Source: Escherichia phage vB_EcoM_G2133. From it: a stretch of DNA of 64,000 bases. Under the pieces are notes generated by a model. The model was not told the origin of the DNA, did no database searches, and saw only the letters and a list, made by a program, of their open reading frames with translations. Of this stretch, positions 732-7,294 are shown one piece after another; position 1 is the first letter of the stretch; every line of letters starts with the position of its first letter. The translations under genes were made by a program, and so were the position numbers. The stretch is from sequence record MK327928.1; one strand, 5' to 3'.

Positions 732-1972
<1,241 letters not shown>

Positions 1973-1991
<19 letters not shown>

Positions 1992-2335
1992 TCACTCACA
2001 AACTCTTTCATTGATTCATTTTCAATATAAGACATGTAGCTATTATATTCTTTTAATTGTATTTTGTAATCCTTTTTTCTTTGCCAATTTATTTTAAAAT
2101 TATCATAATGAAAATATAACATGGTACCAAAGAATGAAAATAATGAAATCGCTATAGTATAACGAAGTTCACTCCAAACCTCTGTTATAATTACTGTGCC
2201 GTCGATGTTTAAAATAAGATAGTCAATTAACAATCCAAAAAGACTACCTGCAAGAGCTGCAGCCAACGCCACAGCAAAAATTAAAAATGACTCAGGAAAC
2301 GAATATTTGACTTTATTTAGTTTTGGTTTTTGCAT
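1973..2335 (-). CDS. small hydrophobic (membrane) protein, unknown function
   Basis: ORF with a long hydrophobic segment (FLIFAVALAAALAGSLFGLLIDYLIL); overlaps neighbours in an operon-like array. Confidence 0.5.
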
Positions 2336-2730
2336 CGTGATTCCTTAACAAATTTCATAATTTCATCAAATTCATACATATCTAGCTTAAGCTGGTGTTC
2401 CTTTTTGATCTTTTTACACTGAGCTTTCCATTCACGTACACGTTTACGATAATGCCTTCCTTGATACCAATATCCTACCCAATTTACAGGTACTAATAAA
2501 AATGGAACTACTAATGGAAGAATTAATACTAACAGAAATATTACGTCAGATTCAATATCAGTCATAAAGTCTATAACCATTCCAACAATCAATAGAATTA
2601 CAAATGATATAAGTATAACAGGACCTATTAATACATCAGTAGAAATTATCTGGTGCTTTGGCTCATACTTCAAAGGTTTACTTGGAAGGTATAGTGATGG
2701 TTTTGACATATTCTCTGCATTCCTTAACAA
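2317..2730 (-). CDS. membrane protein with two predicted TM helices, unknown function
   Basis: Hydrophobic stretches VLIGPVILISFVILLIVGMVI and VIFLLVLILPLVVPFLLVPV followed by a basic tail; true start may be the internal Met at 2709. Confidence 0.5.
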   Translation of the reverse strand: MLRNAENMSKPSLYLPSKPLKYEPKHQIISTDVLIGPVILISFVILLIVGMVIDFMTDIESDVIFLLVLILPLVVPFLLVPVNWVGYWYQGRHYRKRVREWKAQCKKIKKEHQLKLDMYEFDEIMKFVKESRCKNQN

Positions 2731-3292
2731 ATTTTTCTAGTAATAAATCACTTTCAAAATTAGGATTTTCCACGAATTTATCAAAAAGATCATCAACAAT
2801 AGTCAAGATATTTCTTTTACTAAGAATACGTTTATTTTCATGTTTCGTTTCAGAATCAACTATAAGAGTAAAGAAATATTTCTTTCCCTGAAATTTTACT
2901 GTAGTATCAATATAAAATAAATTTGACTTTTGTAAATTACGTTTAAACCATGCGTCACTTAAACTATAAACACCGAGATAATCAAAATCGTCGTTTAAAT
3001 AACAAACTGTCCATTCAGGAGAAATGAAATCAGTAAATTCAACATCAAAATCACACGTCAATGAATGAATTGATTCAATACTGTTAATGAGTATTCCAGG
3101 ACGTATTAAAGACTTTTTACCTCTAGAAAATCTTCCGGAAAGGCTTTCATCAGTTTCATATGAAGACCCCCAATAGTAATTACGTCCTTCTGCCATGCGT
3201 TTAAGAGCATTTAGTAATTGGTCTGGAACATCAACCTGTCTTTGGAACTCTTCAAACATTGAATTGAAATCACTTTGCATTTTCATTTTCAT
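2678..3292 (-). CDS. hypothetical protein
   Basis: 204-aa ORF with no recognisable motif; in the early accessory block between nudE and the tRNAs. Confidence 0.5.
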   Translation of the reverse strand: MKMKMQSDFNSMFEEFQRQVDVPDQLLNALKRMAEGRNYYWGSSYETDESLSGRFSRGKKSLIRPGILINSIESIHSLTCDFDVEFTDFISPEWTVCYLNDDFDYLGVYSLSDAWFKRNLQKSNLFYIDTTVKFQGKKYFFTLIVDSETKHENKRILSKRNILTIVDDLFDKFVENPNFESDLLLEKFVKECREYVKTITIPSK

Positions 3293-3333
3293 TCCTATTT
3301 ACTCCAAGTAATAGGGGCCGAAGCCCCTTATCA

Positions 3334-3927
3334 TTATTTCAGAGAATTAATGTATTCCTGAACATCGGCAGAGGTAGTTTCAACCCCAGAAATATTACCG
3401 TTAAAGGTTTCAACTCGAGCAAGGGTATCTTCAATATCAACCTTAGTCAGTGCTGCAATTTCAACTACATCATCGGCAGTACTAATTCCAAGGGCATTTG
3501 CTGCACGAGTTTCACGGATATATTCCAATTTAACCGCAAGTTCTTGACGAGCATCATCTAACTCAACTACTTTCTTGGCGATTTCAATTCGCATTTCAGC
3601 ATAACCGTCAGCCTTAGTAGTCAACTGCTCAGCTGTTCGACGATATAGTAAACCGAGTTTAGCATGCATTGTTACATCTTGACCTTCGGAAAGAAGTTTA
3701 CGAATTTCACGCTCTTTTGATTCGGCTTGTCGATTCTTTTCGACAATAAGTTCACGAATACGTTTTTCTTCATTAATAGATTTAACAGAAGCAGTTTTTA
3801 GATCTTTAATTTTATCAAGTAGTTTTGCTGCTGCAGCAGTATACTGTTCTTCGACAGATAGATTTTTAGCCATAGCAGAACCAAGTTTAGTGCGAATAAA
3901 CTCAACAATTTTCTTCAGTGTGTTCAT
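3334..3927 (-). CDS. predicted coiled-coil protein (possibly PspA/IM30-like), unknown function
   Basis: 197-aa K/E/R-rich sequence with heptad-like periodicity; own early-type promoter and AAGGAAA RBS upstream. Confidence 0.5.
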
Positions 3928-3969
3928 AGTATTTCCTTAGGTTGATTAAGATTTAAAATCTGTGGAAGA

Positions 3970-3999
3970 ATTATATCATGCTATTTAAGAGGTGTAAAC
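3970..3999 (-). promoter_or_regulatory. early (sigma70-type) promoter, GTTTACA-N17-TATAAT
   Basis: Minus strand reads GTTTACA, a 17-nt spacer, then TATAAT about 40 nt upstream of the 3334..3927 start. Confidence 0.45.
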
Positions 4000-4501
4000 T
4001 ATTTTTAATTTTACAAATTCGTTCAGCTTCTTCAACAGCGGCGGCGATAATGCTTTTAGCTATAGGAGTACTAATACTAGTAGCTTTTACACTTAACACG
4101 ATTTCTTTATCTTTACCAGGCCAACCCCACGTTTTTTCACCGTGAGTGCCTTTAATTACAGCAAACACCTCAAGTGAGCATCCATTATCACATGTTTTTA
4201 CATTAACAACCCAAGGGTCACTTTTCTCAACCGGTTTATCAATCGGTTTATCCCAGTAAATATTAAGAATACGTGGGACATCAAATTTAGCAGGGCAAAT
4301 CTTAACCGTAAGACCTTCGCTTTCTAGCCAATTAATAAGAGGGCGTTCATACATGCGACGATGTGGGCTTTGGACTCGACAAGCCTTGTGCCCATTGCTT
4401 GCGGCTTCACTAAGTTGTTCTAATACCTGCTTTTGCATTATTGATAAGATACCATCAAAAGATTTTTCGGAAGTTTCATTTAGTTCGGTATAAAGAGACA
4501 T
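3971..4501 (-). CDS. hypothetical protein
   Basis: ORF with GAGGAAA RBS before the Met at 4501 (ORF track begins 5 codons earlier); no recognisable motif. Confidence 0.5.
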   Translation of the reverse strand: MSLYTELNETSEKSFDGILSIMQKQVLEQLSEAASNGHKACRVQSPHRRMYERPLINWLESEGLTVKICPAKFDVPRILNIYWDKPIDKPVEKSDPWVVNVKTCDNGCSLEVFAVIKGTHGEKTWGWPGKDKEIVLSVKATSISTPIAKSIIAAAVEEAERICKIKNSLHLLNSMI

Positions 4502-4557
4502 AACAGTTTTCCTCAAGTTACAGGCTCATAATATCTCAATCATGAGCCTGTGTAAAC

Positions 4558-4833
4558 TTATTTCATATTATTGAAATATTCTTCTGCGATTTCGTCGTTA
4601 TCATGGTAAACTTTAGAAGACAGTTTAACATAACCTTCAGCAGTGAACATATTAATCACAACCTTTACAGTATACCACTGACCATCTTCATTACCCATTA
4701 CTGCGTAAGTTTCAAACATCGGATGGTCAGGACCGATAACTTTAATATCATTCACTGTACGACCGAAATCTTCTGAAACGCATTTCATAAAGAAGTTGAA
4801 CAGTTCACCGTAATTATCCATTTCATTCTCCAA
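4558..4833 (-). CDS. hypothetical protein
   Basis: 91-aa ORF preceded by an early-type promoter repeat. Confidence 0.5.
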   Translation of the reverse strand: MENEMDNYGELFNFFMKCVSEDFGRTVNDIKVIGPDHPMFETYAVMGNEDGQWYTVKVVINMFTAEGYVKLSSKVYHDNDEIAEEYFNNMK

Positions 4834-4864
4834 GTTGTTTTCTGTATCAGTAGTTGATAGTTAT

Positions 4865-4894
4865 ATAGTACCATGGAAGAACAGGGATGTAAAC
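4865..4894 (-). promoter_or_regulatory. early-type promoter repeat, GTTTACA-N17-TACTAT
   Basis: Minus strand GTTTACA, 17-nt spacer, TACTAT; same architecture as the elements at 7882, 8178 and 8508. Confidence 0.4.
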
Positions 4895-5025
4895 CGTTTT
4901 GTGAAAAAATTTTTAAAAAGTTTTAGGGAATTCTAGGGTCAGGAGGGGCAATTAAAAGATAGGATAATATATTATAAAGGGTATAAACTAAATGATGCCT
5001 AGAGAGGCTCGGAAAGGCCTAGATA

Positions 5026-5053
5026 CCAAAAAGCCCCAACCTTTCGGTCGGGG
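5026..5053 (-). terminator. rho-independent terminator ending the tRNA/stable-RNA transcription unit
   Basis: Minus strand GCCCCGACC-GAAA-GGTTGGGGC hairpin followed by TTTTTGG. Confidence 0.6.
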
Positions 5054-5104
5054 CTAAGCCTTGCGGCAACCTTGTCGGGGTTCCACCTGCTAAGGCAAGT
5101 GTTT

Positions 5105-5197
5105 GTACGAAACGCCGGGATTCGAACCCGGTTATTAAGCAGTTGACGCTACTCAATATTTTAAAAGGCCATATCTCGACCATATCCGAACGTTCCG
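5105..5197 (-). ncRNA. tRNA-like structured RNA (candidate counterpart of a T4 stable RNA species, or a degenerate tRNA)
   Basis: Minus strand has a canonical T-arm (CCGGG-TTCGAAT-CCCGG) and a 7-bp acceptor-like pairing (CGGAACG / CGTTTCG), but is about 91 nt and I could not fold a standard anticodon arm by eye; sits between tRNA-Arg and the terminator. Confidence 0.35.
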
Positions 5198-5371
5198 TCA
5201 AAAACGCTACTCGGCTTATGGCAAAGATATTTCCTCGAATCGATAATTCGGTGCGCCGTTTCTGCTGTGATATAAGGGGGGCATTAACAAAACATAAAGA
5301 TTTATTAATGCCAGTCCTTAAACAGGGAACATCAGTCCGACGACTTACCGGTAGCGACCCGGTTTCTTGTC

Positions 5372-5447
5372 TGGTCGAGGCAGTAGGGATCGAACCTACG
5401 ACCCAGGACTTAGAAGGTCCTTGCTCTTCCTTCTGAGCTATGCCCCG
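5372..5447 (-). tRNA. tRNA-Arg (anticodon UCU)
   Basis: Minus strand CGGGGCATAGCTCAG...GGACC-TTCTAAG-GTCCT...GTAGG-TTCGATC-CCTAC-TGCCTCG-ACCA folds as a cloverleaf with anticodon TCT. Confidence 0.8.
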
Positions 5448-5450
5448 TAA

Positions 5451-6116
5451 TTAAAATTTCATTTTTCGACCTTTAAACCATCCTTCTGGAATTGGGTCAG
5501 TTTTCTTAATACGTTTAGAAACTTTTTCATCTAATGAATGAATCCACATCATGCCAAATTGGGAATTCTTTTCACCTTGTTGGTGTTTATTTCTGGCGTG
5601 AGATTCTTTCATTTTATTAATAGTTTCAGGAGTATGGGTCTTACCCAAGAAAGATTTAGTATTTAAAAATTTCTCTCTATACTTAGGATTATCCCAAAGC
5701 TGTTTAAACCTTTCTGAACCCATTTTACGATATTTTTCTTTAAGGTCTGGGTCGTTCTCAAATCTGGTTTTAAAAGCGGCAGCTCCTTTTAAGGAAGCTT
5801 CTTTCTTTTTATCCAAATATTCTTTAGTGTTTAAATGGTCCCAACCACCTTCACCACCTAATTTCAAATTATAAACATCAGGGCGCTTTAAAAACTCTTC
5901 AGTCACAATATTCTTTTCTGACTCAAACATAGAGGTTTTATCGTCAAAGAACTCTAATATTTCTTTAGAAAAATTTTCTATACCATACTTATCTTGGGCT
6001 CTTTTTAATAATTTACCAGAACCCATATATCCATCATCTAAATTTTCGGTAGAATGAGCGCCTATATAGATTTTATTATTAATTTTATTTGTTATTTTAT
6101 AAATGTAATGGAACAT
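5451..6116 (-). CDS. segB: GIY-YIG homing endonuclease
   Basis: N-terminal GIY-YIG module (HYIYKITNKINNKIYIGAHS...GYMGSG); lies between the two tRNA subclusters, as segB does in T4. Confidence 0.85.
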   Translation of the reverse strand: MFHYIYKITNKINNKIYIGAHSTENLDDGYMGSGKLLKRAQDKYGIENFSKEILEFFDDKTSMFESEKNIVTEEFLKRPDVYNLKLGGEGGWDHLNTKEYLDKKKEASLKGAAAFKTRFENDPDLKEKYRKMGSERFKQLWDNPKYREKFLNTKSFLGKTHTPETINKMKESHARNKHQQGEKNSQFGMMWIHSLDEKVSKRIKKTDPIPEGWFKGRKMKF

Positions 6117-6157
6117 AAATATCTCCTATTTCTAAGAGTATTTATGTTCTCAAAATA

Positions 6158-6229
6158 TGGCCCTGGGTGGAATTGAACCACCATCTGGCGATTATGAGTC
6201 GCTTGCTTGAACCTTCCAGCTACAGGGCC
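6158..6229 (-). tRNA. tRNA-Ile (anticodon CAU, lysidine-type; software may call it Met)
   Basis: Minus strand GGCCCTG...AGCGA-CTCATAA-TCGCC...GGTGG-TTCAATT-CCACC-CAGGGCC-A; anticodon CAT, as in the T4 tRNA-Ile. Confidence 0.7.
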
Positions 6230-6235
6230 TTGATA

Positions 6236-6308
6236 TGCTGATTGACGGAATCGAACCGCCGACGTCCTCATTACAAGTGAGGTGCTCTACCTACTGAGCT
6301 AAATCAGC
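6236..6308 (-). tRNA. tRNA-Thr (anticodon UGU)
   Basis: Minus strand GCTGATTTAGCTCAGTAGG...CCTCA-CTTGTAA-TGAGG...GGTTCGATTCC...AATCAGC-A. Confidence 0.8.
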
Positions 6309-6661: not shown

Positions 6662-7294
6662 TTATTTATTACGTGAAAAAGATTGTTCTATCAATTCTGG
6701 ACACTTTCGTTCTATCCATTTTCTAGCTTTTTGTGGGCTTATACCTATTATTTTAGCAGCTTTACTAACCCATCCAAATTTAGAATAATCGATTTTAACT
6801 AATTCTTCGTAAATTTCATCAGTTAAAATCTTTTCATTAATATTTACCAGTAAATGATATAATTTATTATCATTAGCAATTTTAATGAATCTTTTATAGT
6901 TTCCGCCTTTACTTAAACCTAATGAAGTAATTGCAGATGATATAGTAGCCGAATTTAATAATGCGTTTAAAATTTCTTCATCACTAACATTATAACGCTT
7001 TTTATTATTTTTAATATTTTTACCAGCAAAAGTATCAGTTTGCGAATGGCAATTTGGACATAATAATCTTAAATTTGATTTAAGATGATTTTTATTATTT
7101 CCATCAATATGGTCTAATTGCAGAACAATATGCTTATTTTGCCATTTTGAAATTTTACAAATTGCACACTCATATGGAAAAATATTTTCTTTTATTATTT
7201 TGTCTTTCAGCTTTCCTGTACTAAAATTTGGATGTTTTCCTTCAAAAATTTCAGCTAATTTAGTATCCATAATATAATTCCCAATTATTAACAA
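6662..7294 (-). CDS. HNH homing endonuclease
   Basis: HNH core CAICKISKWQNKHIVLQLDHIDGNNKNHLKSNLRLLCPNCH with zinc-binding Cys pairs; stop codon 6 nt from the 5' end of tRNA-Leu; true start may be the internal Met at 7270. Confidence 0.75.
   Translation of the reverse strand: MLIIGNYIMDTKLAEIFEGKHPNFSTGKLKDKIIKENIFPYECAICKISKWQNKHIVLQLDHIDGNNKNHLKSNLRLLCPNCHSQTDTFAGKNIKNNKKRYNVSDEEILNALLNSATISSAITSLGLSKGGNYKRFIKIANDNKLYHLLVNINEKILTDEIYEELVKIDYSKFGWVSKAAKIIGISPQKARKWIERKCPELIEQSFSRNK

Follow-up and report, generated by a model that had tools for sequence, protein, structure and literature searches.

A probable PspA/IM30/Vipp1 homologue and a shared C-terminal tail motif in the early e.3–e.8 block of a T4-like Escherichia phage

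PspA, IM30 and Vipp1 are bacterial proteins with an ESCRT-III fold that polymerise on the cytoplasmic face of the membrane and limit proton leakage, and small inner-membrane partners, namely PspB and PspC or LiaI, recruit or regulate PspA or LiaH. Bacteriophage T4 is the best-studied virulent phage, and about half of its genes are without known function. Here we report an analysis of six consecutive open reading frames (ORFs), all on the minus strand, at positions 1973–4833 of a 64-kb stretch (hereafter the window) of the T4-like (Tequatrovirus) Escherichia phage vB_EcoM_G2133, MK327928.1. Five of the six are orthologues, in conserved order, of the T4 genes e.3, e.4, e.5, e.6 and e.8 (85–99.5% protein identity by BLASTP). 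A preliminary description of this DNA found no recognisable functions or conserved motifs in the block. That statement fails for e.6, which is very probably a member of the PspA/IM30/Vipp1 branch within the ESCRT-III superfamily, and for e.3, e.4 and e.5, which share a C-terminal motif. The genes themselves are long-known T4 ORFs; new, as far as the searchable literature shows, are the placement of e.6 in the PspA/ESCRT-III group, the e.6–e.5–e.3/e.4 module and the tail motif.

The e.6 protein and the PspA/IM30/Vipp1 family

Profile and structure searches, which the preliminary description had proposed for each ORF, gave for e.6 both a predicted fold closest to Vipp1 and a significant profile match. 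The AlphaFold2 model (predicted local distance difference test, pLDDT, 74.7) has an N-terminal helix at residues 3–22, a helical hairpin formed by residues 25–80 and 86–145, and short C-terminal helices, so that the predicted structure contains the alpha0 helix, the alpha1–alpha2/3 hairpin and the shorter helices of an ESCRT-III-type fold. When this model was compared with the PDB using Foldseek, Vipp1 took the top eight places (E 3.7e-4 to 7e-3), with archaeal CdvB and PspA ranked next. The hydrophobic moment of the N-terminal helix is 0.45, compared with 0.42 in PspA and 0.57 in Vipp1. Within the e.6 family, which forms 45 clusters at 50% identity (full-length members of ~195–209 amino acids, the remainder being shorter partial sequences), K5 of alpha0 is invariant, and M1, F10, I11 and K14 are nearly so.

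Two profiles of the family were used, a narrow one (A1) and one of 38 sequences to which distant family members had been added (A2). The A1 profile reached Vipp1 at E 1.4–3.4 only, and retrieved no cellular PspA from a library of 1.8 billion proteins; the link to Vipp1 became significant only once the distant members had joined the profile. The A2 profile matched Vipp1 sll0617 at E 9.5e-5 in a colinear alignment of residues 1–146 against 1–147, together with eight more Vipp1/PspA sequences, six of them at E < 1.2e-3 and the next at E 0.0037. Five of the 38 family members match PF04012 (PspA_IM30), the best at E 8.9e-10, and two of these proteins, P0096 (39.0 bits) and P0095 (35.1 bits), lie above the gathering threshold for PF04012, which is 33.9 bits. 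Both are matched over their full length by the e.6 profile in the 1.8-billion-protein library (E 2.9e-20 and 1.5e-21, respectively), and their genes lie on T4-like contigs beside uvsX, gp41, dsbA and ligase genes. The e.6 protein of the window is itself 24% identical by BLASTP to P0095, the PspA_IM30 protein of locus L005, over 200 amino acids (E 1e-15). A single-sequence search of the PDB with e.6 returned nothing.

Comparison of the e.6 family by hhalign with Vipp1 (the segment obtained from the A2 profile match) and with E. coli PspA gave probabilities of 87–91% over 135–168 columns, aligned start to start; the longer alignment takes in the PspA alpha4 segment 'LDEAMARFESFE', which faces a 13-residue stretch of e.6.

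Like the PspA/IM30/LiaH proteins (PF04012), e.6 thus combines a predicted amphipathic N-terminal helix, a long hairpin and shorter C-terminal helices with colinear, profile-level similarity from residue 1, and its gene neighbours encode small inner-membrane proteins, an arrangement seen also for pspA (pspBC) and liaH (liaI). In contrast to PspA and LiaH, which are stress-induced through sigma-54/PspF or LiaRS, e.6 is phage-encoded and has a T4 early promoter of the sigma-70 type. It is also shorter than the members of the PspA family (about 197 amino acids versus about 220–270).

Homologues of e.6 were found in 1099 phage records from phages of Escherichia, Klebsiella, Aeromonas, Enterobacter, Yersinia and other hosts, all annotated either as "hypothetical" or as "host specificity protein". 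The latter label, carried by many records (e.g. H32–H34, H37 and H38), is unsupported by sequence, predicted fold or genomic context, and looks like a propagated annotation error.

Downstream genes and the C-terminal tail motif

Conservation across T4-like genomes, a further check proposed in the preliminary description, was assessed in 40 viral loci with e.6 homologues of 49–100% identity, within which iterative searches were made with hidden Markov models (HMMs). An e.5-family ORF, homologous over about 150 amino acids, follows e.6 directly in all 40 loci, and e.3/e.4-type genes lie downstream in 34 of them. The two-transmembrane inner-membrane proteins that usually follow, of the e.3, e.4 and e.2 types, differ in make-up from one T4-like phage to another, as do the small soluble proteins that accompany them. 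The products of e.3 and e.4 are paralogues belonging to one family of membrane proteins, typically with two transmembrane segments; their relationship is seen only by iterative HMM searches (jackhmmer), the BLASTP comparison of e.3 with e.4 being non-significant (E 0.13). Kyte–Doolittle hydropathy predicts transmembrane segments in these two block proteins only, two being resolved in e.4, and so bears out the two small membrane proteins first noted here. Lysine and arginine are clustered in the N- and C-terminal segments of both proteins, and the loop is acidic. Because of this positive-inside charge distribution, e.3 and e.4 are predicted to have both termini inside, and the tail would therefore be cytoplasmic, on the same side as the PspA-like protein. 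The e.5 product is a soluble alpha/beta protein with a C-terminal helix. Its AlphaFold2 model is of low confidence (pLDDT 61) and gave no reliable fold match, and its profile retrieved nothing from the PDB sequences. Identification of e.5 as a small alarmone synthetase was considered and rejected (Foldseek template modelling scores of 0.13–0.21 and probability < 0.45, with a poor model).

These proteins are linked by a short tail, [FW][IVL]xxC[RK], located within the last 22 residues and usually preceded, three positions earlier, by a hydrophobic residue. In the window, the C-terminal helix of e.5 carries the tail ...EKFVKECREYVK, the tail of e.3 matches the strict motif, and the basic tail of e.4 ends ...IMKFVKESRCKNQN (...MKFVKESRCK), a variant with Ser for Cys. 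The strict motif has three matches in the 29,105 ORF residues of the window, two of which are the tails of e.3 and e.5. Among the 40 loci, 105 of the 445 downstream ORFs carry it but none of the 460 ORFs upstream of e.6, and the first ORF after e.6 bears it in 36 loci. When the tails are removed, the proteins that bear them fall into 21 BLASTP clusters, about half of them membrane and half soluble proteins; the motif connects e.6 with at least four or five protein families that otherwise have no relationship. Near distant e.6 homologues (22–25% identity), neighbouring proteins end in the same tail or in an Ala variant of it, such as FIDECK at L046, SILANAR, AIVHRAR, TIIARAK and SIIKHAR at L003 and L005, and IVEQAR at L050.

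Several further observations concern these genes. The e.5 ORF is split at L007 (region 5636–6250, into 145 and 92 amino acids), and e.6 is split at L029 and L045 (about 5001–5590); these may be frameshifts, sequencing errors or real pseudogenes. Several Tequatroviruses have at the e.2 position a gene (L006, 4227–4715; L008; L009, 6952–7440) for a protein of 162 amino acids with predicted transmembrane segments and the tail ...NNFITECRKLK. The annotated T4 e.2 (L001, 2653–2961) encodes 102 amino acids without a tail, with about 160 nt of non-coding sequence separating it from nudE, and so may be a truncated version of this longer protein. At L011–L032, about +1.5 to +3 kb past e.6 (for example L012, 6980–8112, and L013, 6522–7778), there are tandem arrays of small ORFs of 65–150 amino acids in other T4-like genera with a second C-terminal motif, ...G(x)W(V/F)SSSxxC, whose Cys is the last residue; they are interleaved with FIxxCR-tail genes, and the family is absent from the present window.

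A proposed Psp-like membrane module and its alternatives

As small proteins of the inner membrane whose C-terminal tails are predicted to be cytoplasmic and whose genes neighbour one of the PspA family, e.3 and e.4 recall PspB/PspC and LiaI, by an analogy of function and position. Unlike PspB/PspC, PspD, LiaI and LiaF, to which they are unrelated in sequence, e.5 and e.3/e.4 have their own FIxxCR tail, and e.3/e.4 have two transmembrane segments. The block has neither the pspB/pspC/pspF or liaI/liaF partners nor the stress-inducible regulation of a canonical Psp or Lia system. Since no such partner was matched and the promoters are T4 early promoters, e.6 can be filed as a PspA-family protein, but its operon is not a canonical Psp/Lia operon.

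On balance, we favour the interpretation that e.6, e.5, e.4 and e.3 form a conserved early operon, a phage Psp-like module for maintenance of the inner membrane with tail-bearing adaptors. Polymerising on the inner membrane by way of its amphipathic N-terminal helix, e.6 would stabilise that membrane. The tail would be a docking helix, and the adaptors bearing it would recruit or regulate the e.6 polymer at the membrane, by analogy with the action of PspB/PspC on PspA or of LiaI on LiaH. T4 shuts off host transcription soon after infection; the psp response of the host would thus not be inducible, and the phage would therefore supply its own PspA early. Such a protein could keep the membrane sealed and energised after injection, during superinfection or lysis from without, during lysis inhibition, and against pore-forming abortive-infection effectors. 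More tentatively, and here we are rather doubtful, T4-like phages might possess an ESCRT-III/PspA membrane-maintenance system of their own, in which the e.6 polymer is tuned by fast-evolving adaptors defined only by a hydrophobic-xx-F-[I/V]-xx-[C/A]-R docking helix; this adaptor class might comprise e.5, the two-transmembrane proteins of the e.3/e.4/e.2 type and several small soluble families.

A number of points weigh against the Psp-like module. The e.6 protein of the window has no match to PF04012 even at E 10, so that its link to PspA is profile-level or transitive; unlike the distant family members that pass the threshold, e.6 of the T4 clade has diverged too far to match Pfam directly. 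A search of the PDB sequences with P0096 alone found no PspA. No homology of e.3, e.4 or e.5 to PspB, PspC, LiaI or other Psp partners was detectable in Pfam, NCBIfam or PADLOC. The tail was not found at L048, the most distant locus checked. Moreover, its purine-rich x-x/R codons often double as the Shine–Dalgarno sequence of the next gene, the next ATG lying 7–20 nt past the Cys codon in about half of 85 unique DNA instances, so that conservation of the tail may partly be at the nucleotide level. Shared ancestry within a single hyperplastic operon could also account for the co-location of e.6 and the tail, and a host protein, not e.6, might be what the tail binds. Finally, T4 remains viable in the laboratory after deletions near gene e and the tRNA region, and whatever role the module has must therefore be conditional.

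Each of three other explanations is nevertheless less likely than the Psp-like module. It is improbable that e.6, although a true PspA homologue, works against the host Psp system as an antagonist or decoy, sequestering PspF, PspB or PspC or poisoning PspA polymers, with the tail proteins given to separate tasks such as superinfection exclusion or the inhibition of host membrane proteins. The N-terminal hairpin of E. coli PspA carries the determinants for binding PspF and PspBC, the homology of e.6 spans this hairpin region, and early expression would suit a takeover function. However, host shutoff by T4 makes repression of psp largely redundant, the conserved amphipathic alpha0 argues for membrane binding, and the strict pairing of e.6 with e.5 and the travelling of the tail with e.6 argue for a joint function.

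We regard it as very unlikely that the tail motif is a nucleotide-level signal, either for translational coupling and ribosome binding or as a recombination joint for cassette shuffling, rather than part of a protein module. Besides the proximity of the next ATG, the overlapping or abutting genes of the operon would suit such a signal, and AAGGAA (Lys-Glu) or AGG/AGA (Arg) codons can act as Shine–Dalgarno sequences. Yet in the remaining half the next start codon is at least 23 nt away or lies upstream, its distance from the Cys codon ranging overall from −146 to +126 nt. The conserved Phe, Ile/Val and Cys vary freely among synonymous codons (Cys, TGT 43 and TGC 42; Phe, TTT 58 and TTC 26), and Arg is drawn from both the CGN and AGR families (AGA 25, CGT 21, AGG 16, CGC 9, CGA 6 and CGG 2). 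This synonymous freedom and the variable start distance indicate that selection acts mainly on the protein, and the replacement of Cys by Ala in distant phages is likewise a protein-like swap of small residues.

It is, finally, also very unlikely that the likeness of e.6 to PspA is an artefact of coiled-coil composition, with e.6 a generic coiled-coil early protein in a block of independent accessory genes, since hhalign probabilities fell from 91% to 1.4% with a reversed template and to at most 0.5% with 30 column-shuffled templates, the alignment is colinear from the first residue and includes alpha4, P0095 and P0096 pass the Pfam threshold, and the leading Foldseek matches are all Vipp1.

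No phage-encoded PspA linked to T4 was found in the full-text literature searched or in the Psp and ESCRT-III papers checked; searches for the e.x gene names, or for PspA together with T4 terms, found nothing relevant, and the main text of the CRISPRi-ART paper does not mention the e.x genes. Some distant phage homologues of e.6 already carry an automatic PspA_IM30 Pfam label, and the idea of a phage-encoded PspA has therefore been latent in the databases. The e.6 gene is among the most widely conserved of the uncharacterised T4 genes. Its placement offers a hypothesis as to how a T4-infected cell, with its stress responses off, keeps its inner membrane tight and energised, and would extend ESCRT-III-like membrane-remodelling proteins to virulent bacteriophages. 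The tail motif offers a means of searching for additional components and lends itself readily to mutagenesis.

Layout, transcription and surroundings of the block

Over positions 1500–5100, the window is 95–96% identical in DNA sequence to hundreds of T4-type phages of Escherichia and Shigella. The six ORFs are arranged as first described, in the T4 e.x position between nudE and the tRNA/rnaC–rnaD cluster, and both orthology and synteny place five of them in the T4 e.3–e.8 gene set; the DNA 5' of e.8 (rnaC/rnaD region) is 95% identical to that of T4. T4 e.2 is absent from the block. The T4 counterparts of the five orthologues (NC_000866, T4p126–T4p131) are annotated as hypothetical proteins. 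The features of the block are as follows.

1973–2335, minus strand: e.3 orthologue, 120 amino acids, 87% identity to T4 e.3
2317–2709, minus strand: e.4 orthologue, 130 amino acids, 85% identity to T4 e.4 over residues 8–137
2678–3292, minus strand: e.5 orthologue, 202–204 amino acids, 96.5% identity to T4 e.5; its 3' end overlaps the e.4 start
3311–3331, minus strand: GGGGC-UUCG-GCCCC hairpin between e.6 and e.5, from a terminator-like scan and folding
3334–3927, minus strand: e.6 orthologue, 197 amino acids, 99.5% identity to T4 e.6
3970–3999, minus strand: early-type promoter of e.6, GTTTACA-N17-TATAAT, overlapping the stop codon of the 176-amino-acid ORF upstream
3971–4501, minus strand: 176-amino-acid ORF in the T4 e.7 slot (181 amino acids if read from TTG at 4516)
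4505–4560, minus strand: element of the promoter-early stem-loop (PeSL) type, with a promoter, GTTTACA-N17-TATTAT (4528–4557), inside a strong stem-loop
4558–4821, minus strand: e.8 orthologue, 87 amino acids from ATG at 4821, 99% identity to T4 e.8
4865–4894, minus strand: early-type promoter of e.8, GTTTACA-N17-TACTAT, kept in T4

The start codons of e.4, e.5 and e.8 were revised relative to the mechanical ORF calls, using T4 and other homologues. Judged by this comparison, e.4 has 130 amino acids, from ATG at 2709, and not 137 (the mechanical ORF reaches TTG at 2730); e.8 has 87, from 4821, and not 91; e.5 probably has 202, from 3286; and the ORF first given as 181 amino acids probably has 176, from ATG at 4501. 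The stop codon of e.3 overlaps the start codon of nudE (ATGA, about 1973–1976), and e.5, e.4, e.3 and nudE all abut or overlap, an arrangement typical of one translationally coupled unit.

None of the six proteins had a significant family match in Pfam, NCBIfam or PADLOC, and a PHROGs scan assigned them only to families of "unknown function". As to known defence and anti-defence systems in PADLOC, e.4 weakly matches generic 4TM effector models (E 0.005–0.05), and the other five match none. No ORF of the block was given a housekeeping function, and roles in host takeover, superinfection exclusion or anti-defence, as proposed in the preliminary description, are possible.

The early-promoter pattern GTTTACA-N17-TAnnnT occurs at six sites in the window, whereas 0.31 would be expected from shuffled sequences. 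Three of the six, all on the minus strand, belong to the block, where they closely precede e.6, the 176-amino-acid ORF and e.8; the same three sites are present at the same positions in T4. In T4, the mRNAs of e.2–e.8 are all classed as early (PMC9697503, supplementary files 4 and 6), and all e.2–e.8 proteins have been detected, those of e.4, e.5, e.7 and e.8 in the early period, that of e.6 in the middle period and that of e.3 late (PMC9697503). The promoter motifs together with these T4 data support the early expression originally proposed for the block. The hairpin between e.6 and e.5 folds at −15.1 kcal/mol (z = −2.0, positions 3295–3345), and no strong U-run comes after it. Its role could be to stabilise the RNA or to cause attenuation.

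PeSLs are mobile regulatory cassettes of T4-type phages (Arbiol et al. 2010, PMC2839356; Comeau et al. 2014, PMC4122927). The element at 4505–4560 folds at −22.9 kcal/mol (z = −6.6), and its promoter and hairpin are nearly identical in T4 despite the different downstream gene. An early promoter with a stable stem-loop is thus found at the edge of a gene that differs among close relatives, as in a PeSL, and the conservation of this hairpin-embedded promoter before differing genes identifies 4505–4560 as a PeSL-type element that forms the upstream boundary of the swap between e.7 and the 176-amino-acid ORF, and explains that swap. A single clear PeSL-like element was examined in the block; on its downstream side the swap is bounded by an ordinary early promoter that has no hairpin of this kind.

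The 176-amino-acid ORF resembles neither T4 e.7 nor the other T4 e.x proteins by BLASTP, and has no match in Pfam, NCBIfam, PADLOC or the PDB sequences; its homologues (167–176 amino acids, mostly 172) are confined to T4-like phages or phage-derived records. Its C-terminus (...EEAERICKIKN) was considered as an instance of the tail motif and rejected, because the register does not fit. The e.8 product is a small soluble early protein, for which neither a family match nor a PDB sequence match was found. Upstream of e.6, the 176-amino-acid ORF occurs in 13 of the 40 loci, T4 e.7 in nine and e.8 in 12, and e.8, where present, is always upstream of e.6. Thus e.8 and the 176-amino-acid ORF behave as separate exchangeable early cassettes, each with its own T4 early promoter. 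The variability among T-even phages that was attributed to the whole region holds for the e.7 swap, the missing e.2 and the patchy e.8, but not for the e.6–e.5 pair or the e.3/e.4-type genes.

Beyond the block, positions 4834–5380 match the rnaC/rnaD region of T4 (species 1 and 2 stable RNA) at 95% identity, with a strong terminator-like hairpin at 5032–5055, towards the 3' (e.8-proximal) end of the homologous region. Within this region, ARAGORN calls a 94-nt tRNA-Lys(ttt) at 5105–5198 on the minus strand, where the Rfam tRNA model scores below threshold; the call is probably a tRNA-like part of the rnaC/rnaD small RNAs, and not a real tRNA-Lys gene. Two ORFs on the minus strand are associated with the tRNA cluster. 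One (5451–6116, 221 amino acids) lies inside the cluster, has a GIY-YIG-like N-terminus, as judged by eye, and sits at the position of the T4 homing endonuclease gene segB. The other (6662–7294, 210 amino acids), between tRNA-Leu and the trna.2 homologue, has an HNH-type Cys/His motif (...CAIC...LDHIDGNNKNH...CPNCH..., likewise judged by eye). Its position is that of tRNA-Gln in T4; as tRNA-Gln was not found in the tRNA cluster of the window, this ORF may represent an insertion or replacement by a homing endonuclease. Three small ORFs on the minus strand (70–252, 732–1013/1028 and 7912–8145/8187) begin with MKTYQEF, MKMYQEF and MKTYSEF, respectively, the capsid-targeting sequence of T4 internal proteins, and otherwise differ from T4 ipII, ipIII and ipI. 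They resemble the variable internal (injected) proteins, among which are anti-restriction factors.

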